In this document: piece after piece, positions 1 through 41,452 of the stretch
How positions within the stretch are numbered: position 1 is the first letter of the stretch
How the letters are laid out: each line of letters starts with the position of its first letter
Virus record (IMG/VR): IMGVR_UViG_3300032144_000028
Coordinates: 1 to 41,452 of that record
Length of the DNA stretch: 41,452 nt
From: a virus
Reading direction: 5' to 3' (one strand)
Translations under genes and position numbers: made by a program
The notes under the pieces: model-generated
What the model saw: only the letters and a program-made list of their open reading frames with translations
What the model was told of the DNA's origin: nothing
The model's database searches: none

Positions 1-127
1 GGGCGAGGCCTCGGCCACGCCGGACCTCGACGTCCCCGCGCTGCTCGAGCTGCGCGACGCGACGATCACCGCGGAGCTGGCGAACGGGAAGGTCGCCGTG
101 CTCCGCGACGCCTGGCAGGCCCAGGAG
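1..127. repeat. Terminal overlap, left copy (identical to 41326..41452)
   Basis: Read base by base: 1-127 (gggcgaggcctcggccacgccggacctcgacg...ctggcaggcccaggag) equals 41326-41452 exactly. 127 nt is a typical assembler k-mer length, so this marks a circularly closed contig of 41,325 unique bp. Confidence 0.9.
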
Positions 128-7393: not shown

Positions 7394-8917
7394 GTGGACC
7401 AGATCGAGCTCACCGAGTTCCTGACGCCGGTCGTGGGCGCCGGAGTCTCGGTCGACTGGGACCTGACCGCCGGCGGGATCACCGAGCCGACCAAGGCGGC
7501 CGTGCTGCTCTACTCCGCCAGCGACGCCGACGACACCGACCACCCCAGCGCGCGCGTCGGGATCACTCTGGTCTCCTCCGAGAGCACCAACAAGGTCCAC
7601 TCGAACTGCGTCCTGGCCCGCGACGCCCTGGCGGCCCCGGACGCGCGGACGGCCGTCGGGGCCCGGGCCTGCTACGTACCCCGGGTTTCTGCGTTCCCCA
7701 CCCAGTTCGACCAGGACAACAGCTACCAGGCGGCGATCTCCGGCGGCTTCCGCTTCCGGACCACGATCGACCCTTTGGTCCGCAGCCGCGGCGCCGCCCT
7801 GATCCTGGCCGGGACCGGCATGCGGTCGTGGTCTGGATCCGCCGAGGCGACCACGACCCAGCAGGACGTCGACACCGGGCCGCTCCTGCCGACCGACCAG
7901 CGCTTCCGTCCGCACCTCCTGATCGTCGTGGCCACCAGGACCTCGGGGACCTCTGGCCAGATAGACGATGCGGCGATGGGAGTCGGCTTCGTAGTGGACG
8001 ACGGCGGCCCGACCCAGGTCTGTGCCTTCACGGACTGGGCCGACGCCACGGAGCCGAGCGACACCGACGGCGAGCTGCGCTCCGACGCCGGGGCCGCCGG
8101 TCTGCGCCCCTCGGCGCGCGGGACGCGAGTCCTGGTGACCTTCGAGTTCACGTCCACCGGGTTCAAGCACCAGGCGAGCGCCGACGACCTGTCCTTCACG
8201 TTCCTGGCGGTGCGGTTCGAGGCGGGGGCCCCCGGGATCTACGCCGGGAACCACGAGCTGAACGGGAGCACGAGCGAGCCGATCGTCCTACCCTTCGACC
8301 CGCACGCCGTGCTCGCCCTGAGCTCGCTCCTCGGTGGCCTGGACACGCCCGTCTCGAGCAGCGACGCCGGAGCCTTCGGGCTTTCTCTCTTCGGTCCCTC
8401 CTTCGAGCGCGCCTACTCCGCGCGCATGAAGCAGGGGGAGAGCACCTCGAGCGACGCCAGCTTCCGACAGGAGGCTGTGGCCGTCCTGACCCTGGACCAC
8501 CTGGGCGCCGTCGCGCGCCGAGGCACCTACGACGGTCCGGCCTCGCCCCACGGCTTCGTCCTCGACTTCACGTCGCCCGCCGCCGGCCACCTCACGATCC
8601 TGGCCCTCGCGCCGGTGGGTCTCGTGCCGGTGGACGCGGTCGAGCTCCCGCTGGTCCTGCCGGCGGTGACGATCGCGGGACTGATCACGCCGTCGCCGGT
8701 CGTCCTCGGACTCGGCGTCCCGGCGGCCATCGTCGTCCTGCCGCAGCAGCCGGCCCCGGCCGCGCTCGCGCTCCAGCTCCCGGCCCCGACGCTTTTCACC
8801 CCGAGTCCGATGGCCGTGCGGATCCCACCCGTCCTCGGGCCCAGCTACCACGCGAGCCTCGCCGCGCTCCTGCCGCGCGGGCTCGCCTGGAACCGCCGCG
8901 TGGAGGCCGAGACGTGA
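7394..8917 (+). CDS. Hypothetical structural protein; paralogue of the 16296..18815 product; Pro-rich repeats and a gp48-type N-terminal motif at its C-terminus
   Basis: GTG 7394, 507 aa with normal amino-acid composition. Its C-terminal third parallels the 839-aa protein (...GFVLDFTSPAAGHLTILALA... vs ...GFDVDVTDAAGGSRVVCYWAL...). This is followed by 3-4 PxPV..L.L.LPAP repeats and ends ...SYHASLAALLPRGLAWNRRVEAET*. Confidence 0.6.
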   Translation: MDQIELTEFLTPVVGAGVSVDWDLTAGGITEPTKAAVLLYSASDADDTDHPSARVGITLVSSESTNKVHSNCVLARDALAAPDARTAVGARACYVPRVSAFPTQFDQDNSYQAAISGGFRFRTTIDPLVRSRGAALILAGTGMRSWSGSAEATTTQQDVDTGPLLPTDQRFRPHLLIVVATRTSGTSGQIDDAAMGVGFVVDDGGPTQVCAFTDWADATEPSDTDGELRSDAGAAGLRPSARGTRVLVTFEFTSTGFKHQASADDLSFTFLAVRFEAGAPGIYAGNHELNGSTSEPIVLPFDPHAVLALSSLLGGLDTPVSSSDAGAFGLSLFGPSFERAYSARMKQGESTSSDASFRQEAVAVLTLDHLGAVARRGTYDGPASPHGFVLDFTSPAAGHLTILALAPVGLVPVDAVELPLVLPAVTIAGLITPSPVVLGLGVPAAIVVLPQQPAPAALALQLPAPTLFTPSPMAVRIPPVLGPSYHASLAALLPRGLAWNRRVEAET

Positions 8918-9525
8918 CCACGACGCTCCTCCGCGTCCTGCGCGCGCCGGCCGAGCTCCTGGCCCAGCTCGAGCTTCGCTCGCTCGACCTCCTCGAGGAG
9001 ACCGACGTGCGCACCACCGTCGAGCTGCTCCCCGAGTGGGCCGAGTGGCTGGGCCTGGCCGAAGACTGCACCGACGGCCTGCCGCAGACGACGCCCGAGC
9101 AGCGCTTCGCCGCCTACCGGAAGCTCACCACGCCGGGCGGACAGAACCGCTTCCACTACGTCGAGGTCGCCCAGGCGCTCGGCTACGACGTCGACCTCGA
9201 GGACCTGGTCGAGCTCCTCCCCTTCGTGGCGGAGGGCTCGGACGCCGAGGACCCCTGCTACGACGACGACTGGCGCTTCGTGCTCGAGGTGCACGCGCCG
9301 GAGGTGACGCCGCGCTTCGCGCGCGCCGGCGAGAGCGTCGCCGGCGAGCCCCTGGTCACCTTCGGGAACGAGCTCCTCTCCTGCACGCTCGACAACCTGA
9401 AGCCGGCGCACGTGCTCTTCCTCTACATCTTCGACAAGCCCTACGCTGGCTACGCCCCCTGGAACTTCGCGGCCCCCACCCCCGTCCAGCTGGGCCTCGT
9501 CCTGCCGATCCCCACCAGGAGCTGA
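8914..9525 (+). CDS. Mu gp48-like baseplate/tail protein (DUF2313 family), apparently lacking its own N-terminal motif
   Basis: GTG 8914 in a GTGA overlap, 203 aa. ...LLRVLRAPAELLAQLELRSLDLLEETDVRTTVELLPEWAEWLGLAEDC...PGGQNRFHYVEVAQALGYDV... Ends ...APTPVQLGLVLPIPTRS*. Confidence 0.75.
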   Translation: MTTTLLRVLRAPAELLAQLELRSLDLLEETDVRTTVELLPEWAEWLGLAEDCTDGLPQTTPEQRFAAYRKLTTPGGQNRFHYVEVAQALGYDVDLEDLVELLPFVAEGSDAEDPCYDDDWRFVLEVHAPEVTPRFARAGESVAGEPLVTFGNELLSCTLDNLKPAHVLFLYIFDKPYAGYAPWNFAAPTPVQLGLVLPIPTRS

Positions 9526-9528
9526 ACC

Positions 9529-10818
9529 ATGTTCCGGATCGACCACCCGACCCGCGCCGCCGCGCTGCCCTCCCCCGACCCGGTCGCGTCCCAGGGCTTC
9601 TTCACCAAGGGCGACCCGACGATGGCGGTGCCCGCCACGCGCGTCACCCAGGACTGGCTCAACGCGGTCCAGGAGGAGCTCGCCAACGCGATCGAGGCGG
9701 AAGGGGTCGTCCTCGACAAGGGGGACCGCAGGCAACTCTCCCGCGCGCTGCAGCGCACCCGAGGGGGTTCAGGTTTCTCCAACCTGATCCAAAACCCGGA
9801 GTTCGACGTGGCCCAGCGCGGCACCACCATCGCGATCAACCCCGGGAACCCTGGCTCCGGCACCTTCGCCCTTCTGCGCGGTCCCGACCGTTGGCGGTAC
9901 CGCCTCGGAGACGCGACGGACGAGGGCACGTGGAGCACCACGATCGACGCGATCAACACCCTCGGCGACGTCCCTAACTCCGGGGCGACCAGCTACGCGA
10001 CGCTGCAGCGCAACGGGACCTCCAGCAGCGGGGTTCGACCCGCCATCGAACAAGCGATCGAGGGTGTCCACCTCCTCTCCGGCGAGCCCGTCGTGTTGGC
10101 CTTCGATTGTCGCAAGCACCAGGTCAGCGATCCGGTTGGCGACATCGAGCTCGTGGAGCTCATTCAGGTCTTCGGACAGACTGGCTCGCCGAGCGCTCCC
10201 GTGACCACGGTCCTATCCTCGCCGCTCACGGGGTACGACGGCACCTGGCGGCGGTTCACCTTCACCGGCGTCCTGCCCTCGATCTCCGGGAAGACGATCA
10301 CCAACGGGCACCACCTTCTCCTCCGGATCCACTTCACCGACCAGACGGCGACGGCGCGGGTCGACGTGACGGGTTTCGTGATGCAGCGAGGCACGATCGA
10401 TCCCGGCTACACGAGCCGCGGGCGCGTTCTGGAGACGCTCCTCTGCTCGCGGTACTTCGAGAGCAGTCGCTACGGCGACGGTGCGGTTCCGACTCTTGCA
10501 TTCACCGCCGGCTGCGAGGAGGTCGGCCTCTGGGACACCGCCTTCGACGGCGCTGGCAAGGTGCGGACCCTTGGTCGGCGATTCCTGGTCCCGAAGTACG
10601 CGCGCAACGCCTCCGTCGTCCTGCCTACGGTCACGTGGCGGGGCACCAACGGGTCGGACGACTTCGTCACGGAAGGTGCCTCGACCCACCACCCCGTGAC
10701 GTCGGCCGACGTGACCTTCGATCACTCCGGGTTCCCGGAGATCACCTCCCCGCCCGCCGGCGGGACGCTGCGCCAGTTCCGGGGTTACTTCTACGCCGAG
10801 GCCGAAATCCTGGCGTGA
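9529..10818 (+). CDS. Tail fibre protein
   Basis: ATG 9529 preceded by AGGAG, 429 aa. N-terminus MFRIDHPTRAAALPSPDPVASQGFFTKGDPTMAVPATRVTQDWLNAVQEELANAIEAEG is the recurrent myophage fibre anchor motif. The C-terminal ~330 aa is unrecognised and visibly less GC-rich. Confidence 0.8.
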   Translation: MFRIDHPTRAAALPSPDPVASQGFFTKGDPTMAVPATRVTQDWLNAVQEELANAIEAEGVVLDKGDRRQLSRALQRTRGGSGFSNLIQNPEFDVAQRGTTIAINPGNPGSGTFALLRGPDRWRYRLGDATDEGTWSTTIDAINTLGDVPNSGATSYATLQRNGTSSSGVRPAIEQAIEGVHLLSGEPVVLAFDCRKHQVSDPVGDIELVELIQVFGQTGSPSAPVTTVLSSPLTGYDGTWRRFTFTGVLPSISGKTITNGHHLLLRIHFTDQTATARVDVTGFVMQRGTIDPGYTSRGRVLETLLCSRYFESSRYGDGAVPTLAFTAGCEEVGLWDTAFDGAGKVRTLGRRFLVPKYARNASVVLPTVTWRGTNGSDDFVTEGASTHHPVTSADVTFDHSGFPEITSPPAGGTLRQFRGYFYAEAEILA

Positions 10819-11153
10819 TGGAGCCCTCGACCTTCGCCCTGCGCGCGCTCGCGCTACTCGCGGTGCTCGTCGGCCTGCTCCAGGCCTTCGGCGTGCTCGC
10901 CTGGTACGCCGGCGCCCGGCTCGTGACGCCCCCCAAGACCTGGCACGTGGTCTCCGTGGCGATCGGCTGGACGCTGATCCAGGTCTTCGCGCTGATCGGA
11001 CTCGCCCGGACCTGGATCGACGTGCCCCTGCCGCCTGGGCTCCGGGCATGCTTCGCGCTAGTCGGCCAGGCCTTCGTGATCTACGGGACCCACCAGCTCT
11101 TCTGGGCCGCCCGCCGGCGTGAGCGGCGCGAGGGTGCAGGAGGATCCGCGTGA
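10818..11153 (+). CDS. Membrane protein, three predicted TM helices, charged C-terminus (class I holin-like topology)
   Basis: ATG 10818 in an ATGA overlap, 111 aa. Hydrophobic segments ALRALALLAVLVGLLQAFGVLAW, VVSVAIGWTLIQVFALIGLA and LRACFALVGQAFVIYG, then a RRRERRE tail. Confidence 0.6.
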   Translation: MEPSTFALRALALLAVLVGLLQAFGVLAWYAGARLVTPPKTWHVVSVAIGWTLIQVFALIGLARTWIDVPLPPGLRACFALVGQAFVIYGTHQLFWAARRRERREGAGGSA

Positions 11154-11443
11154 CCGACCTCGGCCCCTGGATCGCCGTCGCCTCGCTGACGATCTCGCTC
11201 TCGGTGCTCGTCTTCGGGGCGATCCAGTACCGGCGCGTTGCCCGCAAGGACTACGTGGACGAGCTCGAGCGCGAGCTGCGCCGGATCGAGGCCCGCACGA
11301 CGGAGTGCGAGGTCGCCCGAGAAGCCCTGGCCCGGAAGGTGGAGGAGTGCGAAGAGGAGCGGGGGCGCCTGGAGCGGCGCACCTTCGAGCTGCTCTCCGA
11401 GCTCCACCAGCGGCCCAGCGGTCCCACGCAGCCGGCCTTCTAG
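11150..11443 (+). CDS. N-terminally anchored coiled-coil protein (i-spanin-like architecture)
   Basis: GTG 11150 in a GTGA overlap, 97 aa. TM segment WIAVASLTISLSVLVFGAI, then a charged heptad-like region ...DELERELRRIEARTTECEVAREALARKVEECEEERGRLERR... Confidence 0.55.
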   Translation: MTDLGPWIAVASLTISLSVLVFGAIQYRRVARKDYVDELERELRRIEARTTECEVAREALARKVEECEEERGRLERRTFELLSELHQRPSGPTQPAF

Positions 11444-12833: not shown

Positions 12834-13018
12834 GGTCGTTTCCTTCCGTGTGCCCCTGGGTTGCGTCTTCCGGGTCTCCCCGGCCTGAGACCTACTTCGG
12901 ACCTCGGGCTCACGCAGCTCGAGCGGAACGGGGGTATCTTTCGTCCGGCGGCGCGCGGTGCAGGGATTGCCGCGCGGCCGCCGGCGGGCTCCGGCCCTCG
13001 GTCTTCTCGGCACGCGCA

Positions 13019-13085: not shown

Positions 13086-13114
13086 GGACACGAAGAAGAC
13101 GCCGAGGCGTCTCC
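13086..13114 (-). terminator. Candidate intrinsic terminator after the 13141..13668 gene
   Basis: The minus-strand RNA would fold GGAGACGC-cucg-GCGUCUUC (8 bp including one G-U), followed by UUCGUGUCC, 27 nt past the stop codon. The U tract is poor. Confidence 0.3.
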
Positions 13115-13140
13115 AGCCGGGGAGCCGGGGCCCGCTTCTT

Positions 13141-13668
13141 TCAGAGGTTCGGCGGGCCCTGAAGCAGGACCTGGACGCTCGTCACGCCGATCCCGGCCGC
13201 GGCCGTCGCGACGCCGATCGTCCGGTTGCCGGCCGAGGTCGTCGTCACCTCGCCGGCGCCGGCGTCCCAGTAGATGCGCTGGTGCAACGTGATCGCGTCC
13301 CCGGAGACCTTGGGCAGGAGGAACGTCCCGCGCACCTGCAGCGTCGCCGGCTGGCCCGTCAGGACCGAGGCCTTCACCACCCCGAAGGCGTCGCCCGAGA
13401 GGAGCCCCTCGCCGGCGGTGAGGTCCGCGGGCGCGGTGAAGACGAGCTCGGTCCCGGCGACGCGAGCCGCGAGGGCGAGGATCGCCGAACGCACCTGGGT
13501 CGCGTCGAGCCTGTCGAGCGCGAGGCCCTCGGCCTCGACCAGGCCAGCGAGCTCCTCCTGCAGGGCGTTGAGCCAGTCGGGCGAGATCACCGTCCCCTGG
13601 ACCCCGGCGAAGGGGTTCCCTCCCACCCAGGTCCCCGCCACGGAGCCGGGGGAGTCGATGCGGAACAT
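13141..13668 (-). CDS. Chimeric protein: tail-fibre N-terminal anchor motif fused to a DUF2190 (head decoration-like) domain
   Basis: 175 aa. N-terminus MFRIDSPGSVAGTW...TVISPDWLNALQEELAGLVEAEGLAL parallels 9529..10818. The C-terminus ...VRGTFLLPKVSGDAITLHQRIYWDAGAGEVTTTSAGNRTIGVATAAAGIGVTSVQVLL parallels 38019..38369 (...KGVVRLPKSTSDAITAGARVFWDNTAKEIRAASAAGRFMIGTAETAQ...). Confidence 0.75.
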   Translation of the reverse strand: MFRIDSPGSVAGTWVGGNPFAGVQGTVISPDWLNALQEELAGLVEAEGLALDRLDATQVRSAILALAARVAGTELVFTAPADLTAGEGLLSGDAFGVVKASVLTGQPATLQVRGTFLLPKVSGDAITLHQRIYWDAGAGEVTTTSAGNRTIGVATAAAGIGVTSVQVLLQGPPNL

Positions 13669-13691: not shown

Positions 13692-14993
13692 ATGCTCAAG
13701 CACCTCTCCCGACTCGTCGCCCTGGTCCTCTGCGCCGTCGCCTGGGGCCAGGAGACCCCCCGCTACTTCGAGGTCCTGATCCCAGAGGGGAGCTCGACCG
13801 GTTTCTCGATCGACGCGAAGAGTCCCCACCAGACCCGGTACTACTCGAGCACGGCCGGACTCGAGCGCGTCGTCGGGCAGAGCCTCGGCGGGATCCCGCC
13901 CGAGCAGCTCGAAGGCGCCCGGGTCGCGGTGCGCGCGAGCCTGCGCGCCCAGGCCGCCCCGGGCTCCTTCTGGCTCGACCGCGGCTTCGACGGGGTGCGC
14001 TTCCGCGGGGCGGGCCTCGACCGCTCCCGCCTCCGGGCGCCGCCGGGCACCGACCAGACGGTGCTGGTCGACCGCCACCAGGGCGCCGTCCTCCTCGAGG
14101 CCGTCACGGTCCACGCCGGGCCGCGCCAGGCGGTCTTCTTCGGCCTCGAGCACAAGGGCGATCCGATCCTCGACCGCTTCGAGCTGCTCATGCGCGACGC
14201 CAAGGTCGTCGCGGACCCCCCGACGGACGGGAACCCCCACTCCACCGTCTGGGGGCTCTTCGCGTACCAGGCGGACGTCACCCTCGAGCGGGTCGAGCTC
14301 GACCTCCTCTTCTCGGCCGAGCACGCCTCCTACTGGCACGGCTTCGCGAAGTACGGCCTGCGGTGGAAGAACGTCAAGGCGCGCGCCGGCGCCGAGGTCT
14401 GCAAGGTCCGGAGCAGCCCCAGCGAGACGGACTGGGTCGCCGGCGCGACGATCGAGCTGCGGGGGTGCCGGATCGAGGACTGGTTCCACCCGGAGAGGTC
14501 CTGGCGCGGCGGGGCCGGGCTCGTGGTCCAGGGTTCGGGCTGCGCTGTGCTGGTCGAGCGCTGCGTCTTCCTCGGCAACGCCGGCAACCGCTCGCGCTGC
14601 ATCATGGTCGACGACTCCGGCGGGGACTTCTTCGGCTACCCCTCGGGCGCGGTGGGCGTCGGGGCCGCCAACGGCCCGGTGGTCGTGCGCGACTCGGGGC
14701 TCTTCGGCGGGCCGGCGCTCGACTCCGGGCTCGCGATCCTGGCCCGGGTCGGCAACTTCGCGGGCTCGTCGCGGCCGTGCGCCCCGCGCGTCCGCTTCTC
14801 CCGCTGCGCCCTGATCGGCGCCGGCGTGCAGCTCCAGCTGGGGGACGTCCCCGCCGGCAAGACCCGCGTGGTCGGCTGCAACACCGAGGCGATCCTCGAG
14901 CTCGTGAAGGGACTCGGGTACCCCTACGAGCCCGAGGGCGTGATCGCGCTCCGGGACCGCCTGGCGAAGATCTCCGAGGGCCTGGTGCGGTAG
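13692..14993 (+). CDS. Secreted protein with signal peptide; possible parallel beta-helix (glycanase-like) fold
   Basis: ATG 13692, 433 aa. N-terminus MLKHLSRLVALVLCAVAWGQETP. The C-terminal half is repetitive and Cys/Gly/Asn-rich (...GCAVLVERCVFLGNAGNRSRCIMVDD...VVVRDSGLFGG...VRFSRCALIGAG...). The fold call is tentative. Confidence 0.6.
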   Translation: MLKHLSRLVALVLCAVAWGQETPRYFEVLIPEGSSTGFSIDAKSPHQTRYYSSTAGLERVVGQSLGGIPPEQLEGARVAVRASLRAQAAPGSFWLDRGFDGVRFRGAGLDRSRLRAPPGTDQTVLVDRHQGAVLLEAVTVHAGPRQAVFFGLEHKGDPILDRFELLMRDAKVVADPPTDGNPHSTVWGLFAYQADVTLERVELDLLFSAEHASYWHGFAKYGLRWKNVKARAGAEVCKVRSSPSETDWVAGATIELRGCRIEDWFHPERSWRGGAGLVVQGSGCAVLVERCVFLGNAGNRSRCIMVDDSGGDFFGYPSGAVGVGAANGPVVVRDSGLFGGPALDSGLAILARVGNFAGSSRPCAPRVRFSRCALIGAGVQLQLGDVPAGKTRVVGCNTEAILELVKGLGYPYEPEGVIALRDRLAKISEGLVR

Positions 14994-15745: not shown

Positions 15746-15773
15746 TTGAACGGGGGGGCGGGGTCCCTATGCT
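15746..15773 (+). promoter_or_regulatory. Sigma70-like promoter candidate TTGAAC-N16-TATGCT
   Basis: TTGAAC at 15746-15751, a 16-nt G-rich spacer, then TATGCT at 15768-15773. It lies 58 nt upstream of ATG 15832, at the head of a + strand gene block that follows a minus-strand gene. Confidence 0.45.
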
Positions 15774-15831
15774 CCTCGGTCGAGCCCCACCCCGTCCCGC
15801 CGACCCTCCCGAGCCCCCACCAGAGACCTCG

Positions 15832-16269
15832 ATGAGCTTCGTCTACCAGCGCCCCAAGGAGCTGCTCGCGACGGCGGCCCTCAACCTGGGCACCGCGGAC
15901 CTGCGCGTCGCCCTGGTGATGACCAACACCACGACGGACACGGAGAAGGCCGCCAACACCTTCGCCGGCTTCACCACGCTCGACGAGTGCGACGGGGCGA
16001 ACTACGCCCGCGTCGACCTCGCCGGCGTGACGACCGTCCGGGACGACGGGAACCTGATCGTCTACCTCGACGCGAACGACGCCGTCTTCACCAACCTGGG
16101 CGCGGGGACGCGGCAGAACCAGGCGGCGCTGCTCCACGTGCACAATGCGACGCCCGGCCTCGAGGTCCCGGTGGCCTTCATCGACACGGGCGGGTTCCCC
16201 TTCGACGGCACCGGCGCGAACAACACGATCCAGTGGGCCGCGCTGGGGATCCTCCAGCTGACCGGCTGA
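15832..16269 (+). CDS. Hypothetical protein (tail-fibre-cluster associated)
   Basis: ATG 15832 (the track ORF starts at 15769 with a Pro-rich extension), 145 aa. ...ADLRVALVMTNTTTDTEKAANTFAGFTTLDECDGANYARVDLAGVTTVRDDGNLIVYLDANDAVFTNLGAGTRQNQAALL... Confidence 0.6.
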   Translation: MSFVYQRPKELLATAALNLGTADLRVALVMTNTTTDTEKAANTFAGFTTLDECDGANYARVDLAGVTTVRDDGNLIVYLDANDAVFTNLGAGTRQNQAALLHVHNATPGLEVPVAFIDTGGFPFDGTGANNTIQWAALGILQLTG

Positions 16270-16295: not shown

Positions 16296-18815
16296 GTGGC
16301 GCTCGACTACGGGATGCGGGTCGTCCACTTCCGACCCGGCATCGGCGAGATCTACGAGCGGGACCTGATCTCGGCCCACGCGACGACGCCGGCGACGGCC
16401 GGCACCTTCACGATCACCGTCGACGGGCAGACGACGGCCGGGATCGCCTTCGACGCCCTGCCCTCGGCCGTGCAGTCGGCCCTCGAGGCCCTGAGCAACG
16501 TCGCGCCGGGCGACGTCGCCTGCTCGATGCTCTCCGGCACCGACCTGGGCGACGCCGGCGCGGTCCTGGTGATCGTCTGGGGCGGGGCCTTCGCCGGCGT
16601 CGACCCGGTCGTGACGGCGAACTTCGCGGGGCTCACGGGGAACCCGCACACCTTCGAGGCCCGCCTGCGCCAGGTCATCCGGATCCCCTCCGGCTACGGC
16701 GCCGACAAGACGATCCTCGCCGCTCGCTTTCGCATGGGCGGGGCCGCGGCCCTGGACACGATCGAGGCCACCGCGCGGATGTTCCTCGGCGTCGCGGACG
16801 CGACCAGCCAGTTCTCCCTGAGCTCGTCGGCCGAGGACAACGTCCTCCCCTCTTCCGCGAACGCCGGTTACCAGGTCGACACGGACTCCGTGCTGCGCAC
16901 GCCGACCGGGCACTGCTCCCGGATCGAGTTCGCCACCGGCGACGGTTCGGTCGAGGTCTCCTGGCGCGGGACCCTGCCCAACCTCCGAGCCTCGGTGGCC
17001 CTGTGGTTCGGGGACGACCTCGAGGCCAAGGTGGGCACCGTCGCCGGCTCGTCCACCCAGGACGCCTCCGTCGACTTCGACCCGGACTTCGCGAACGACC
17101 CGGTCCTCGTCGAGGTTTTCTCGGTGGGCCAGGCCTTCTCCGCCAACGGCTCCGGGAACGAGGCCATGATCTCGGCGGGCTCCGCCGGCCGAGCCTCCTC
17201 CACGATCACGAGCTCGTGCTTCGTCGTCTGCGCCGAGCACCAGCAGAGCCCGAGCTCCTCCGGGCTCGTTGGCGTCTCGGGTAGGAGCGCGGTCCGCCTG
17301 ACGAGCAACGGCGGGACGGTCACCCAGGGGGCCGGGCTCGAGGTGACGAAGATGCTCGCCGGGGAGCTCGAGTTCACCACCCGGGACGCGGCCGAGTCGC
17401 TCTCGGCGATGTTCCTCGTCGTGGCTGTCCCCGGCGGGGTGCGCGGGGTCTCGATCGCCGAGACGCAGGCCGTCGGCACGACCGGCGTGAAGAACTTCGA
17501 CTCGGTTGGCTTCCTGCCCATGGCGTGCGGCGTCGCGTCGGGCCGCACGGCCTCCGTTGGGACGGTCGGCTCCGGGCAGGGGAACCTGAGCTACGGCGCC
17601 GCCGACGGGACCTCCCAGGGGTGCTCGGGCTGGCGCGCGCGCGACAACCAGACCTCGAGCACGGAGACGCAGTCGATCACCTCGGAGACCCGCCTGGTCG
17701 ACGTGCTCGACGGGGACGCGGCCCACGACTGGATCGGCGTCTTCGACGGCTTCACCGAGGACGGGTTCGACGTCGACGTCACCGACGCGGCCGGCGGCTC
17801 GCGCGTCGTCTGCTACTGGGCTCTCGAGAAGCTCGTCCGCGTGGACCCCGACCCGGTCGAGCTCGACCTGGTCCTGCCCGCGCCCGCGATCCTGGTCGAG
17901 CTCGACCCGACCCCGGTCGGGCTCCCGCTCGTGCTGCCCGCGCCGGCGCTCCTGGCGACGCTCACGCCGGCGCCGGTCGACCTGGCCCTCGCCCTACCCG
18001 CGCCCCAGCTCCTCTCGACCGAGACGCCCGCGCCGGTGGAGCTGCCCCTGGTCCTGCCGGCGCCGGCGCTGCTCGTCACGCTGACGCCGGCGCCCGTCGA
18101 GCTCGCCCTGGTGCTCCCTGCGCCCGCGCTCCTGGTCGAGCTCGAGCCCGACCCCGTCGACCTGGCGCTCGTCCTCCCCGCGCCGCAGCTCCTCGCGACG
18201 GAGACGCCGGCGCCGATCGAGCTCGAGCTCGTCCTTCCGGCCCCCACGGTGCTCGAGGCCGGCGAGCAGTCGCCCTTCCCCGTCGAGCTCGACCTGGTCC
18301 TGCCGGCGCCGGCGCTGCTCGTCACGCTGACGCCGGCGCCCGTCGAGCTCGCCCTGGTGCTCCCCGCGCCGGCGCTCCTGGTCGAGCTCGAGCCCGACCC
18401 CGTCGACCTGGCGCTCGTCCTCCCGGCCCCGCAGCTCCTCGTCTCGGAGACGCCGGCGCCGGTCGAGCTCGTGCTGGTCCTCCCGGCGCCGACCCTGATC
18501 CTCGCCGAGGCGGAGACCCCCGCCCCGGTCGAGCTCGCGCTCGCGCTCCCCCCGCCGGCGCGCCTGCTCGAGCTCACGCCGGCCGCGGCCGTGCTCTCGC
18601 TGGTGGTCCCCGCGACGCAGGTCCTCGGCGTCCTCACCCCGGCCTCGGTCGAGCTCGCGCTCGTGGTTCCGAGCCCCTTCCTCGGGCGCCGGGTCGGGAT
18701 CGAGCTCGTCGCCGAGGTCCACCGATCCGCCTCGGCGACGGCCGAGACGGCCCGGGACTTGAGCCTCGTCGCGCCGACCCCGCGCGCGCTCGAACTCGCG
18801 GCGTCCCTGGAGTAG
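16296..18815 (+). CDS. Large repeat-containing structural (fibre-like) protein
   Basis: GTG 16296, 839 aa. A ~515-aa Ser/Thr/Gly/Ala-rich globular part is followed by 14 tandem 20-residue repeats (consensus TPAPVELxLVLPAPxLLxxL) and a ~40-aa tail. Confidence 0.75.
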   Translation: MALDYGMRVVHFRPGIGEIYERDLISAHATTPATAGTFTITVDGQTTAGIAFDALPSAVQSALEALSNVAPGDVACSMLSGTDLGDAGAVLVIVWGGAFAGVDPVVTANFAGLTGNPHTFEARLRQVIRIPSGYGADKTILAARFRMGGAAALDTIEATARMFLGVADATSQFSLSSSAEDNVLPSSANAGYQVDTDSVLRTPTGHCSRIEFATGDGSVEVSWRGTLPNLRASVALWFGDDLEAKVGTVAGSSTQDASVDFDPDFANDPVLVEVFSVGQAFSANGSGNEAMISAGSAGRASSTITSSCFVVCAEHQQSPSSSGLVGVSGRSAVRLTSNGGTVTQGAGLEVTKMLAGELEFTTRDAAESLSAMFLVVAVPGGVRGVSIAETQAVGTTGVKNFDSVGFLPMACGVASGRTASVGTVGSGQGNLSYGAADGTSQGCSGWRARDNQTSSTETQSITSETRLVDVLDGDAAHDWIGVFDGFTEDGFDVDVTDAAGGSRVVCYWALEKLVRVDPDPVELDLVLPAPAILVELDPTPVGLPLVLPAPALLATLTPAPVDLALALPAPQLLSTETPAPVELPLVLPAPALLVTLTPAPVELALVLPAPALLVELEPDPVDLALVLPAPQLLATETPAPIELELVLPAPTVLEAGEQSPFPVELDLVLPAPALLVTLTPAPVELALVLPAPALLVELEPDPVDLALVLPAPQLLVSETPAPVELVLVLPAPTLILAEAETPAPVELALALPPPARLLELTPAAAVLSLVVPATQVLGVLTPASVELALVVPSPFLGRRVGIELVAEVHRSASATAETARDLSLVAPTPRALELAASLE
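17844..18695 (+). repeat. In-frame tandem array, 14 units of ~60 bp (20 aa; two units are 22 aa)
   Basis: Units read off the translation: DPDPVELDLVLPAPAILVEL / DPTPVGLPLVLPAPALLATL / TPAPVDLALALPAPQLLSTE / TPAPVELPLVLPAPALLVTL / ... / TPASVELALVVPSPFLGRRV. Confidence 0.85.
18024..18515 (+). repeat. Higher-order duplication: two 246-bp (4-unit) copies
   Basis: 18048-18196 and 18294-18442 are nearly identical at the DNA level (offset 246 bp, a handful of substitutions). The encoded LVLPAPALLVTLTPAPVELALVLPAPALLVELEPDPVDLALVLPAPQLL occurs twice verbatim. Confidence 0.85.
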
Positions 18816-18827
18816 CCTCGGGCCCGC

Positions 18828-19268
18828 GTGAGCTGCAAGCTGCCTCGCCTGGTCCTCGGCTCCCGGAACGCCCGGATCGCGTTCCAGGTGAAGGAGCGGA
18901 ACGCGCAGGGGAAGCTCGTCCCGGTGGACCTGACGGCGGCCGCGACCCCGCCCGGGTACGTGACGGCCTACTTCCGCAAGCCCAGCGGGGCCCTCGTCAT
19001 GGTCCCCTGCGAGGTCGAGTCGCCGGCCTCGAACGGCGTCGCGCGCTACCTGACGGAGCCCGGCTTCCTGGACGAGTTCGGGGACTGGGAGGCCCAGGCG
19101 CACGTGCACCTCGCCGGCGCCCCGGCCCTCGGCTTCGGCCTCTTCGTCTCGGAGGTCGTGCGCTTCGTCGTCGTCGAGCAGCTCCGGCCCTTCTCCCCCG
19201 CGGACGAGCCCTTCCCCGTGGCCGCCACCCTCCTCCCCCTGGCCCTTCCCCAACCCACCGTCTCGTGA
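18828..19268 (+). CDS. Hypothetical tail-associated protein, possibly Ig-like (BppU_N-like) domain
   Basis: GTG 18828, 146 aa. ...IAFQVKERNAQGKLVPVDLTAAATPPGYVTAYFRKPSGALVMVPCEVESPASNGVARYLTEPGFLDEFGDWEAQAHV... Ends with ...EPFPVAATLLPLALPQPTVS*. Confidence 0.5.
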   Translation: MSCKLPRLVLGSRNARIAFQVKERNAQGKLVPVDLTAAATPPGYVTAYFRKPSGALVMVPCEVESPASNGVARYLTEPGFLDEFGDWEAQAHVHLAGAPALGFGLFVSEVVRFVVVEQLRPFSPADEPFPVAATLLPLALPQPTVS

Positions 19269-38018: not shown

Positions 38019-38369
38019 ATGCGCGTCTACCTCCACGAAGGATGCAAGTCCGAGCAGGTGGCCCCGGCTGGTGGCGTGACCGCCGGCCTCGGCTACGTGA
38101 TCGGCGCGAACACCTTCCTCGTCGCCGAGGGCTCGGCCGCCGCCGGCGAGCGCTTCGTCGGGCTCCGCAAGGGCGTCGTCCGCCTGCCGAAGAGCACCTC
38201 GGACGCGATCACCGCCGGCGCCCGGGTCTTCTGGGACAACACCGCCAAGGAGATCCGCGCCGCCTCGGCCGCGGGTCGCTTCATGATCGGGACCGCCGAG
38301 ACCGCCCAGATCGCCGCCGACCTCTTCGTCGACGTGCTCCTGGACGGGATCTCGACCGTCGCCGTCTGA
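38019..38369 (+). CDS. DUF2190-family head decoration/cement protein
   Basis: ATG 38019, 116 aa. ...GVTAGLGYVIGANTFLVAEGSAAAGERFVGLRKGVVRLPKSTSDAITAGARVFWDNTAKEI...IGTAE... Directly after the capsid gene. Confidence 0.75.
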   Translation: MRVYLHEGCKSEQVAPAGGVTAGLGYVIGANTFLVAEGSAAAGERFVGLRKGVVRLPKSTSDAITAGARVFWDNTAKEIRAASAAGRFMIGTAETAQIAADLFVDVLLDGISTVAV

Positions 38370-38444: not shown

Positions 38445-38828
38445 ATGAGCTGGAGAGACCACGCCGACCTCGCCCAGGAGGTGATCCTGGACGCCTTCGC
38501 CGACCGGGACCCGGCCGGCGTCCTCTCCGTCACCTACGAGCCCGAGGGGGGCGTCGCCCGTCCGATCCGGGCGATCTTCCGCGAGCCCCACGAGGAGCTC
38601 GCCCTCGACCCCCTGCAGGCGCCGGTCTCCATGTGGCGCCCGCGCCTCGGGGTGAAGATCGCGGACCTCCTGCCGGACTGGCCGATCCCGCGCGGCTCGC
38701 GCTTCGTGATCCGACGCCCGCCCGCCGGCGACCCCCGCGACGACGCCTCGGAGGGCCGCTACGAGGTCGTCGACCGCCAGATCGACGGGGAGGGCCTCGT
38801 CGAGCTCTACCTGCGCCTCAAGGACTGA
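38445..38828 (+). CDS. Putative head-tail connector/neck protein
   Basis: ATG 38445, 127 aa. Assigned by position between the head and tail modules. ...RPIRAIFREPHEELALDPLQAPVSMWRPRLGVKIADL...RYEVVDRQIDGEGLVELYLRLKD*. Confidence 0.45.
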   Translation: MSWRDHADLAQEVILDAFADRDPAGVLSVTYEPEGGVARPIRAIFREPHEELALDPLQAPVSMWRPRLGVKIADLLPDWPIPRGSRFVIRRPPAGDPRDDASEGRYEVVDRQIDGEGLVELYLRLKD

Positions 38829-41161: not shown

Positions 41162-41452
41162 ATGGCCTCCCGCATCGGTGGCACCCTCTTCGTGGCCTAC
41201 AACGGCCAGCGCCTCTCCGTGCGCGGCAACTGGAGCGTCGGCTTCGGACGGCCCAAGCGCGAGGCGGTCGTCGGCATGGACGGCGTCCACGGCTACAAGG
41301 AGATGCCCCAGGTCGGCTTCATCGAGGGCGAGGCCTCGGCCACGCCGGACCTCGACGTCCCCGCGCTGCTCGAGCTGCGCGACGCGACGATCACCGCGGA
41401 GCTGGCGAACGGGAAGGTCGCCGTGCTCCGCGACGCCTGGCAGGCCCAGGAG
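41162..41452 (+). CDS. Tail tube protein, N-terminal part (continues at 1..196 after removing the 127-nt overlap)
   Basis: ATG 41162. MASRIGGTLFVAYNGQRLSVRGNWSVGFGRPKREAVVGMDGVHGYKEMPQVGFIEGEASATPDLDVP... The merged product is about 120 aa. Confidence 0.8.
   Translation, partial: MASRIGGTLFVAYNGQRLSVRGNWSVGFGRPKREAVVGMDGVHGYKEMPQVGFIEGEASATPDLDVPALLELRDATITAELANGKVAVLRDAWQAQE
41326..41452. repeat. Terminal overlap, right copy (identical to 1..127)
   Basis: Same 127-nt string as the window start. Confidence 0.9.

Follow-up and report, generated by a model that had tools for sequence, protein, structure and literature searches.

The building blocks from which tailed phages make their heads are usually regarded as a pool apart from those of their tails, and a protein that draws on both raises the question of where in the virion – if in the virion at all – it does its work. 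Such a protein is encoded on the minus strand, at positions 13,141–13,668, of the IMG/VR virus record IMGVR_UViG_3300032144_000028, whose full 41,452 bp (74% GC) we refer to as the window. A preliminary description, made from the letters alone, had read the gene as a chimera, with the N-terminal anchor of a tail fibre joined to a paralogue of the head decoration domain, and had proposed that a capsid fold is thereby reused at the tail tip for receptor binding. The chimera is borne out by BLASTP, by the Pfam profile PF09956 and by a profile match to gp49 of phage Mu. The receptor-binding tip gives way to another reading, which we hold with moderate confidence: a stubby trimer docked on the baseplate, in which a Mu gp49-type anchor and a cement-fold knob or collar would form a conserved mounting unit that is extended in longer relatives.

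An exact 127-bp direct repeat occupies both ends of the window (1–127 and 41,326–41,452), which therefore most likely represents a complete, circularly assembled phage genome of ~41.3 kb. Head genes lie at the right end and run on into the tail genes at the left end, and the recognised genes comprise the small and large terminase, the portal, a PF09956 cement protein past the capsid region, the tail sheath and a Mu-type baseplate. The open reading frame (ORF) in question has the marks of a genuine gene: its third-position GC is 0.94–1.00 (GC3 ~0.95), in the correct phase, and its 175-residue product – hereafter the fused protein – has 21 full-length homologues from soil and other metagenomes, at 55–81% identity.

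We begin with the C-terminal half. Residues 74–168 match PF09956 (Phage_cement_2, or DUF2190) with 72.7 bits (E = 3.5e-20) over profile positions 6–102 of 103, and the standalone 116-residue cement protein encoded at 38,019–38,369 does so with 64.9 bits; both pass the Pfam gathering threshold of 24 bits, and the DUF2190 assignment made in the preliminary description is thus significant. The same description had aligned this half with the product of 38,019–38,369, rightly so: residues 79–171 share 37 of 96 aligned positions with it (39% identity, BLASTP E = 1e-10), and the alignment covers the LPKVSGDAITLHQRIYWDAGAGEV / LPKSTSDAITAGARVFWDNTAKEI stretch. PHROG 122, a head decoration family, is likewise matched by the fused protein (E = 1.3e-18) and by the 116-residue protein. 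In an AlphaFold2 (AF2) monomer model of the fused protein, the predicted local distance difference test score (pLDDT) averages 83 and reaches 90–96 in the C-terminal domain, whose predicted structure finds its best Foldseek match in gp48 of phage phiCD508 (PDB 9GAY; E = 1.4e-7, TMt 0.70, root-mean-square deviation 1.9 Å, 102 columns). Further matches were to capsid chains of HFTV1 and to the basal part of gp8.5, the head fibre of phi29, with weaker ones to lambda gpD and P21 SHP. Sequence family and predicted fold are therefore common to the fused protein and to PF09956 decoration proteins such as phiCD508 gp48 and the phage's own 116-residue protein.

This company would suit a protein of the capsid – a second decoration protein or a head-fibre-like appendage, with the PF09956 domain seated on the three-fold sites, as that of the standalone paralogue presumably is, and the N-terminal module turned outwards. 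The C-terminal domain is a bona fide member of its family, all its strong structural matches are capsid decoration proteins, BFVD contains proteins named 'head fibre' or 'capsid fibre' with its fold, and phages with two decoration proteins are reported to exist (PMC11821841). There is even a known precedent for a decoration-type trimeric base and a fibre-like element in one polypeptide, namely phi29 gp8.5 (PDB 6QYY / 6QVK), although the match to its N-terminal base (E = 8e-4, 13% identity) holds at the fold level only. In gp8.5, however, the base is N-terminal and the fibre C-terminal, on the capsid and without homology to the anchor of Mu protein S (gp49), whereas the order in the fused protein is reversed. 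Known relatives also show what the N-terminus of a capsid cement protein does: phiCD508 gp48, present in 420 copies per capsid and described as trimer-forming, has an N-terminal arm (PMC11948020), and in the trimeric cement protein gp6 of Pam3 most capsid contacts are made by a free N-terminal loop (PMC9942802). Standalone PF09956 members are, moreover, proteins of ~105–125 residues encoded beside the major capsid gene. In the fused protein, by contrast, the place of the free arm is filled by a conserved, folded fibre module of 72 residues with two predicted helices, and the C-terminal domains of fused type form their own clade, ~39% identical to the cognate cement protein. Its gene lies ~24 kb from the capsid region, in which the 38,019–38,369 paralogue resides, and in the window and the relatives examined it never adjoins a capsid gene but is found in or near tail-fibre clusters. 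With the sulfatase-like and repeat-rich distal regions of long relatives (see below) also fitting tail fibres, we consider a place on the capsid quite unlikely.

The N-terminal half points to the tail. The preliminary description had likened residues 1–50 to the N-terminus of the 429-residue main tail fibre; the homology holds, albeit over a longer span of about residues 1–72. Residues 1–63 align with residues 1–74 of the fibre at 31 of 74 positions (42% identity), and as BLASTP with composition-based statistics still gives E = 1e-14, the match is not a compositional one – a concern that had been raised at the outset. About 12 tail-fibre PHROGs are matched by this half, among them 2617, 1858, 6859 and 6683 (E = 8e-13 to 3e-6 for these four). 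When a profile built from fused proteins and genuine fibres was compared with the PDB, it identified the Mu tail fibre S (gp49; 5yvq_A / 9ki1, E = 1.5e-6), with alignments reaching from residues 2–68 to 2–79 of gp49, and nothing else credible. Ten positions of the module do not vary, whether in fused proteins or in genuine fibres, which suggests that a docking function has been kept. Homology to Mu gp49 (PDB 5YVQ / 9KI1) is confined to these N-terminal ~70–80 residues: gp49 has 504 residues, with a shaft and a receptor-binding domain at the C-terminus, and is served by the chaperone gp50, whereas the fused protein has 175 residues, no shaft and a cement-fold end.

A six-frame scan of the window with hidden Markov models (HMMs) found exactly two copies of each module. 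Beyond the window, the N-terminal module also heads P0026 (185 residues, ending in PF21882 Gp53-like_C) and P0027 (275 residues, ending in PF21722 Gly_rich_2), in both of which a Mu-S-type anchor of ~75 residues is directly followed by one small C-terminal domain, as in the fused protein – the difference being that their C-terminal domains are recognised fibre types, whereas that of the fused protein is a capsid decoration fold. Given such dissimilar C-termini behind it, the module can be called a promiscuous fibre anchor. The two copies in the window also leave a trace in the DNA, a 67-nt inverted repeat (9,652–9,718 / 13,512–13,578; 78% complementarity) that derives from their oppositely oriented coding regions; it reflects the homology of the proteins and appears too diverged for a crossover site. 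An invertible segment like the G segment of Mu was considered and, on the evidence of these two coding regions, set aside, because the fused gene and the fibre gene each have their own complete N-terminus and the two regions share just these 67 nt.

What sort of partner the fused protein has may be read from its pace of change. Between the window and its relatives L001 and L004, it is 74% and 55% identical, respectively, which compares with 76% and 55% for the gp47-like baseplate protein and, for L001, with 72% and 67% for the gp44-like and gp43-like proteins. The main fibre stands at 36% in both comparisons; its fast divergence, expected of a Mu gp49-type receptor-binding tip, is not shared by the fused protein. 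Two large proteins encoded nearby, p433 and p839, are 36–38% and 33% identical to their L001 counterparts, and in L004 the former has no match and the latter matches in repeats only. Within the fused family, the N- and C-terminal halves are conserved alike (63% and 66% mean pairwise identity). Evolution in step with the core of the baseplate is the signature of a protein that would contact conserved partners, not of a receptor tip under diversifying selection. The tail-tip or receptor-binding role originally proposed is at odds with this conservation, with the equality of the two halves and with the position of the cement domain in four relatives of 576–1,534 residues, in which it is internal, with a distal region behind it, and therefore cannot be the distal tip.

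These relatives emerged when 1.84 billion cluster representatives were searched exhaustively with HMMER, which returned 8,580 matches. The best 150 of the 8,580 were classified within a set of 189 proteins, sorted with separate HMMs for the N- and C-terminal modules, and this set contained 63 short fused proteins (~170–215 residues), four long fused ones, 94 single-domain cement proteins and 17 with tandem double or triple cement domains. The fused architecture is thus present in at least 67 protein clusters, contrary to the uniqueness that the preliminary description had implied. Nor is it recent, as had also been implied: when 197 PF09956 domains – a sample biased towards the query – were placed in a neighbour-joining tree, a single clade of 64 tips took in 62 of the 67 domains of fused type, from which it follows that the gene is not a recent duplication of the phage's own cement gene. 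The distribution points to a widespread, old and established family of near-single origin.

In the four long forms – P0077 (771 residues), P0090 (576), P0096 (586) and P0139 (1,534) – the PF09956 threshold is passed at about residues 74–174 and further sequence follows. That of P0077 resembles a PF00884 sulfatase, with a formylglycine-type motif (CAPTR...SG, of the form CxPxR), and its residues 185–405 are homologous (E = 5e-7) to the PF00884 sulfatase whose gene, in L009, adjoins the short fused one. The C-termini of P0090 and P0096 are rich in short repeats and possibly beta-propeller-like. PF09956 domains also occur in tandem within single chains, two or three at a time, in P0044 (333 residues), P0080 (332 residues) and 15 proteins of 213–239 residues; a covalent triple of this kind could replace a trimeric cement unit.

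Database names have hidden the family, whose members are called 'DUF2190 family protein' or 'predicted RecA/RadA family phage recombinase'. A tblastn search of 50,697 GenBank phage records yielded none covering at least 80% of the fused protein; a pattern scan of GTDB representative genomes, in which exact peptide patterns can miss relatives, yielded ordinary fibres or standalone cement genes only; and a fold search of BFVD gave good matches only to standalone DUF2190 proteins of ~110 residues. In the literature searched on PF09956/DUF2190 domains together with tail fibres, we found no description of the fused architecture, in agreement with the earlier impression that it is undescribed. As far as this search extends, what is new is a family of short, modular fibre proteins of Mu type with a capsid-derived domain, modular Mu-type fibres as such being already known.

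How might such a protein be held in the virion? The phage resembles Mu in having a baseplate of the gp43–gp48 type: syntenic relatives encode proteins with the Pfam assignments DNA_circ_N (gp43), gp44, gp45, gp46, Baseplate_J (gp47) and gp48, and in L001, L006 and L007 the genes syntenic to the gp48-like gene of the window carry a PF10076 assignment. In Mu, gp48 carries the fibre-docking loop, and cryo-electron microscopy has revealed the gp49 N-terminus as a trimer anchored on this loop, at residues 133–155 (PMC11915804); residues 2–79 of gp49, to which the N-terminal module is homologous, fall inside the docked portion of that model. By analogy, we infer that the gp48-like protein would be the docking partner of both N-terminal modules, that of the fused protein and that of the 429-residue fibre, although the docking-loop region of Mu gp48 does not align with the window's gp48-like product.

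The mechanism we favour then runs as follows. Three N-terminal modules (residues 1–72) would assemble like the N-terminus of Mu gp49, and the resulting trimer would plug onto the fibre-docking loop of the gp48-like wedge protein, at the type of site that also serves the 429-residue fibre. Directly behind this anchor, the PF09956 domain – a fold of very stable capsid trimers – would have been co-opted to form a compact trimeric knob or collar. Such a knob would match a trimeric anchor in its geometry, and phiCD508 gp48, whose fold the domain is predicted to share, forms trimers on the capsid. The 175-residue form would stop after the knob, ending in the conserved GPPNL tail, while in the longer relatives the anchor-plus-collar unit would bear the distal regions, one sulfatase-like and two repeat-rich. 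The unit would in this way be a conserved mounting module of the baseplate rather than a fast-evolving receptor-binding tip. What the analysis shows are the two homologies, the predicted fold, the breadth and near-single origin of the family, its synteny with tail genes and its slow evolution; that the protein forms trimers, docks on the gp48-like wedge and is part of the virion, and what the knob would bind, we infer.

Several observations weigh against a baseplate-docked trimer. The fold match of the N-terminal module to 9ki1_j, which we take to be the Mu gp49 N-terminus, is weak (Foldseek with the AF2 model, E = 0.24). In the same monomer model, pLDDT is low (43–62) for residues 1–30, as would be expected of a segment that folds only in an intertwined trimer. 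A single gp48-like docking protein is evident, so that its six sites would need to be shared by, or contested between, the fused protein and the fibre. Finally, in the lineage of the window the fused gene sits outside the late structural operon, on the opposite strand and 2.3 kb past the fibre gene, among small genes, a gene for a DUF1064 resolvase-like protein and, 23 bp away, the divergent gene of a probably exported protein. The features in question are listed in Table 1.

Table 1. Positions of the fused gene, its modules and associated features (window coordinates unless a relative is named)
Feature	Position	Strand	Remarks
Two-module (fused) protein gene	13141..13668	-	175 aa; begins with ATG at 13668, ends with TGA at 13141
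Mu gp49 (S)-type tail-fibre N-terminal module, putative baseplate-docking trimer	13453..13668	-	residues 1-72
PF09956 Phage_cement_2 (DUF2190) domain	13165..13449	-	residues 74-168; predicted decoration-protein fold
C-terminal tail, residues 169-175 and stop codon	13141..13164	-	LLQGPPNL tail; conserved in close subfamily
Terminator-like hairpin and T-rich tail	13101..13117	-	24 nt past fused-gene stop; 1 site found vs 0.4 expected in shuffles
Main 429-aa tail fibre	9529..10818	+	residues 1-79 are the only other N-module copy in the window
Standalone 116-aa PF09956 cement (head decoration) protein	38019..38369	+	directly after capsid gene; paralogous to C-terminal domain of fused protein
Mu gp48-like baseplate wedge protein (BW3)	8914..9525	+	phmmer to Mu gp48 (9ki1_a), E = 1.7e-5
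p433, 433-aa divergent neighbour	13692..14993	+	starts 23 bp apart; signal-peptide/lipobox-like N-terminus; adjacency conserved
Neighbour genes in relatives	L001 8394-9944; L006 6448-7905; L007 1369-3024; L009 10609-11973; L027 10555-11910		430-590-aa products, adjoining the short fused gene
Conserved non-coding block	window ~12850-12960; L001 10700-10850; L006 8700-8860; L007 3700-3830	- (window)	no Rfam match
Three-gene accessory set	window 15769-16269, 16296-18815, 18816-19268; L008 5575-8434; L009 2029-5619; L027 2336-9995; L028 1440-5278	+ (window)	

The unusual position of the gene could mean that its product never enters the virion. It might be an intracellular regulator or decoy that occupies gp48-type sites by means of its fibre anchor, setting the timing of fibre attachment or poisoning the baseplates of superinfecting relatives, or the gene might be moron-like, with no part to play in the particle. 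The gene order is a conserved one, present in the window and in L001–L004, L006 and L007: the baseplate and fibre genes are followed, on the other strand, by the small genes and the DUF1064 gene, then by a conserved non-coding stretch of ~300 bp, the fused gene and, across 23–56 bp, a divergent gene for a protein of 433–587 residues. The terminator-like hairpin past its stop codon suggests a monocistronic unit, and apparent transcription on its own, outside the late operon and between small genes, the DUF1064 gene and an exported-protein gene, is what a non-virion role would lead one to expect, as is the want of a shaft and of a recognisable receptor-binding domain. A scan for sigma-70 promoters found no site near the fused gene. 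In other lineages, however, the gene keeps company with the tail genes: in L008, L027 and L028 it runs in the same direction as the baseplate and fibre genes, within the downstream part of their cluster, and in L009 it is on the strand of the tail genes, albeit further downstream, past HU- and ParB-like genes. Nor does a decoy sit well with the strong and equal conservation of both domains, or with long relatives whose enzyme-like distal region makes sense only in virion fibres, and we regard a non-virion role as very unlikely.

The ~300-bp gap, which lies past the end of the fused gene and ahead of the small-gene/DUF1064 cluster, contains a conserved block with the consensus GAAACCTACCCCC.TT.CGCTCAGG.TGCGTT.GC...CGTCCGA.GTA.GTC, probably serving as promoter or operator. 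L008 and L028 each have a short fused gene, a gene for 66–79 residues and a long fused gene in succession, and directly downstream of the long one lies a gene of the PF24729 Acb2/Tad1-hairpin family (L008 12,279–12,557; L028 8,590–8,898), presumably a family of sponges for anti-phage signalling nucleotides.

A recurrent feature of the short fused gene is its large neighbour. In three lineages it is adjoined by a gene for 430–590 residues, encoding the p433 family in the lineage of the window, a PF00884 sulfatase (with a CSPTR motif) in L009 and a protein designated L027_451 in L027. All three families have signal-peptide or lipobox-like N-termini – in the p433 family, hydrophobic N-terminal segments are present in five homologues – and they are mutually non-homologous. 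Judging from their sequences, the products may be exported enzymes that act on the host surface and whose genes are kept beside the fibre gene; in phage T5, the llp lipoprotein gene is kept next to the gene of the receptor-binding protein. A functional tie between p433 and the fused gene is, for now, only a lead, and p433 was rejected as a virion cargo, as it has an export-type N-terminus and no homology to any C-terminus of the long fused proteins (best E = 0.078).

These neighbours bear on a variant of the docked trimer in which it serves as an adaptor, recruiting a separately encoded partner through, for example, its GPPNL tail or the cement-like surface, and so achieving without a covalent bond what in the long relatives is achieved by fusion to a cargo region. 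Small conserved proteins of the gp37 type in SP6 and K1-5 have a fibre-type N-terminal anchor and mount variable enzymatic partners on the tail. The sulfatase region that P0077 carries as a fusion, and for which L009 has a separate gene beside the short fused one, would fit such an arrangement, as would the recurrence of the neighbour in three lineages and the pairing of a conserved protein with a variable one (74% vs 36%), a pattern shared with the branched receptor-binding systems of SP6/K1-5 and G7C. Yet there is no sequence relationship to the gp37-type proteins, which belong to a podovirus tail rather than to a Mu-type baseplate, and partner binding by the fused protein is hypothetical. 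Export-type N-termini in all three neighbour families argue for export, not for assembly on cytoplasmic virions; the orientation of the neighbour varies (divergent, convergent or tandem); and the three families lack homology to each other. The GPPNL tail – in which G171, P172 and P173 are invariant, and N174 and L175 at least 90% conserved, in the close subfamily – is missing from distant fused relatives. An adaptor thus seems unlikely to us. Little credence also goes to a broader proposal, in which the anchor-plus-cement unit would be a general, hitherto unrecognised cargo platform on the baseplates of Mu-type myophages, its cargo either fused, as the sulfatase-like or repeat-rich region of the long forms would be, or bound non-covalently, with short forms maybe capturing the product of the adjacent signal-peptide gene.

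Returning to the docked trimer and its possible contacts, we also considered whether p839 and p150 might constitute a second docking system like gp48, and rejected this: p150 has no similarity to the gp48-like protein (E = 1.4), and p839, being partly paralogous to p507, is uninformative about docking. The paralogy itself consists of a common domain of ~230 residues and proline-rich repeats (E = 3e-13), shared by p507 (7,394–8,917, between the gp47-like and gp48-like genes) and the 839-residue protein (16,296–18,815). In L004 (9,042–11,180), the 507-residue-type protein and the gp48-like protein form a single ORF of 712 residues, from which it follows that the former serves to extend the BW3 wedge protein at its N-terminus.

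Elsewhere in the genome, an accessory set of three genes is kept in all lineages, encoding a protein of 145–166 residues, a large variable protein of 521–2,216 residues and a protein of 110–150 residues; it is probably a second fibre or spike system. The first of these is 92% identical between the window and L001 and belongs to PHROG 644, of unknown function, and proline-rich repeats of the form 'LVLPAPxLL' occur in the large one, at least in the window, L008, L009 and L027. Directly past the main fibre gene, where no Mu gp50-like fibre chaperone was recognised, two ORFs (10,830–11,153 and 11,150–11,443, plus strand) encode what by eye appear to be, respectively, a protein that crosses the membrane several times and a small one that has a single hydrophobic segment and a tail resembling a coiled coil; they may be lysis genes. 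Rfam finds no RNA gene in the window. The sole tRNA call, by ARAGORN, is a 79-nt tRNA-Gly(CCC) at 38,465–38,543 (minus strand) inside the coding gene 38,445–38,828 (plus strand), probably a false positive in GC-rich coding sequence.

The fused family overturns no current model. It does show that the labels 'DUF2190', 'head decoration' and 'RecA/RadA recombinase' are misleading for the fused subfamily, a fault that a two-domain annotation rule would correct, and a self-trimerising baseplate plug of 175 residues could serve as a display scaffold. The cargo platform, if real, would bring together, as parts of a single host-recognition module, an exported enzyme of the host surface and an appendage of the virion. 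For the phages themselves, a compact, conserved anchor-plus-trimeriser could account for the way in which accessory enzymes are mounted on the minimal baseplates of some Mu-like phages, and the family represents a capsid decoration fold that was taken over, apparently once, into proteins of the tail-fibre type and later elaborated with enzyme-like distal regions.

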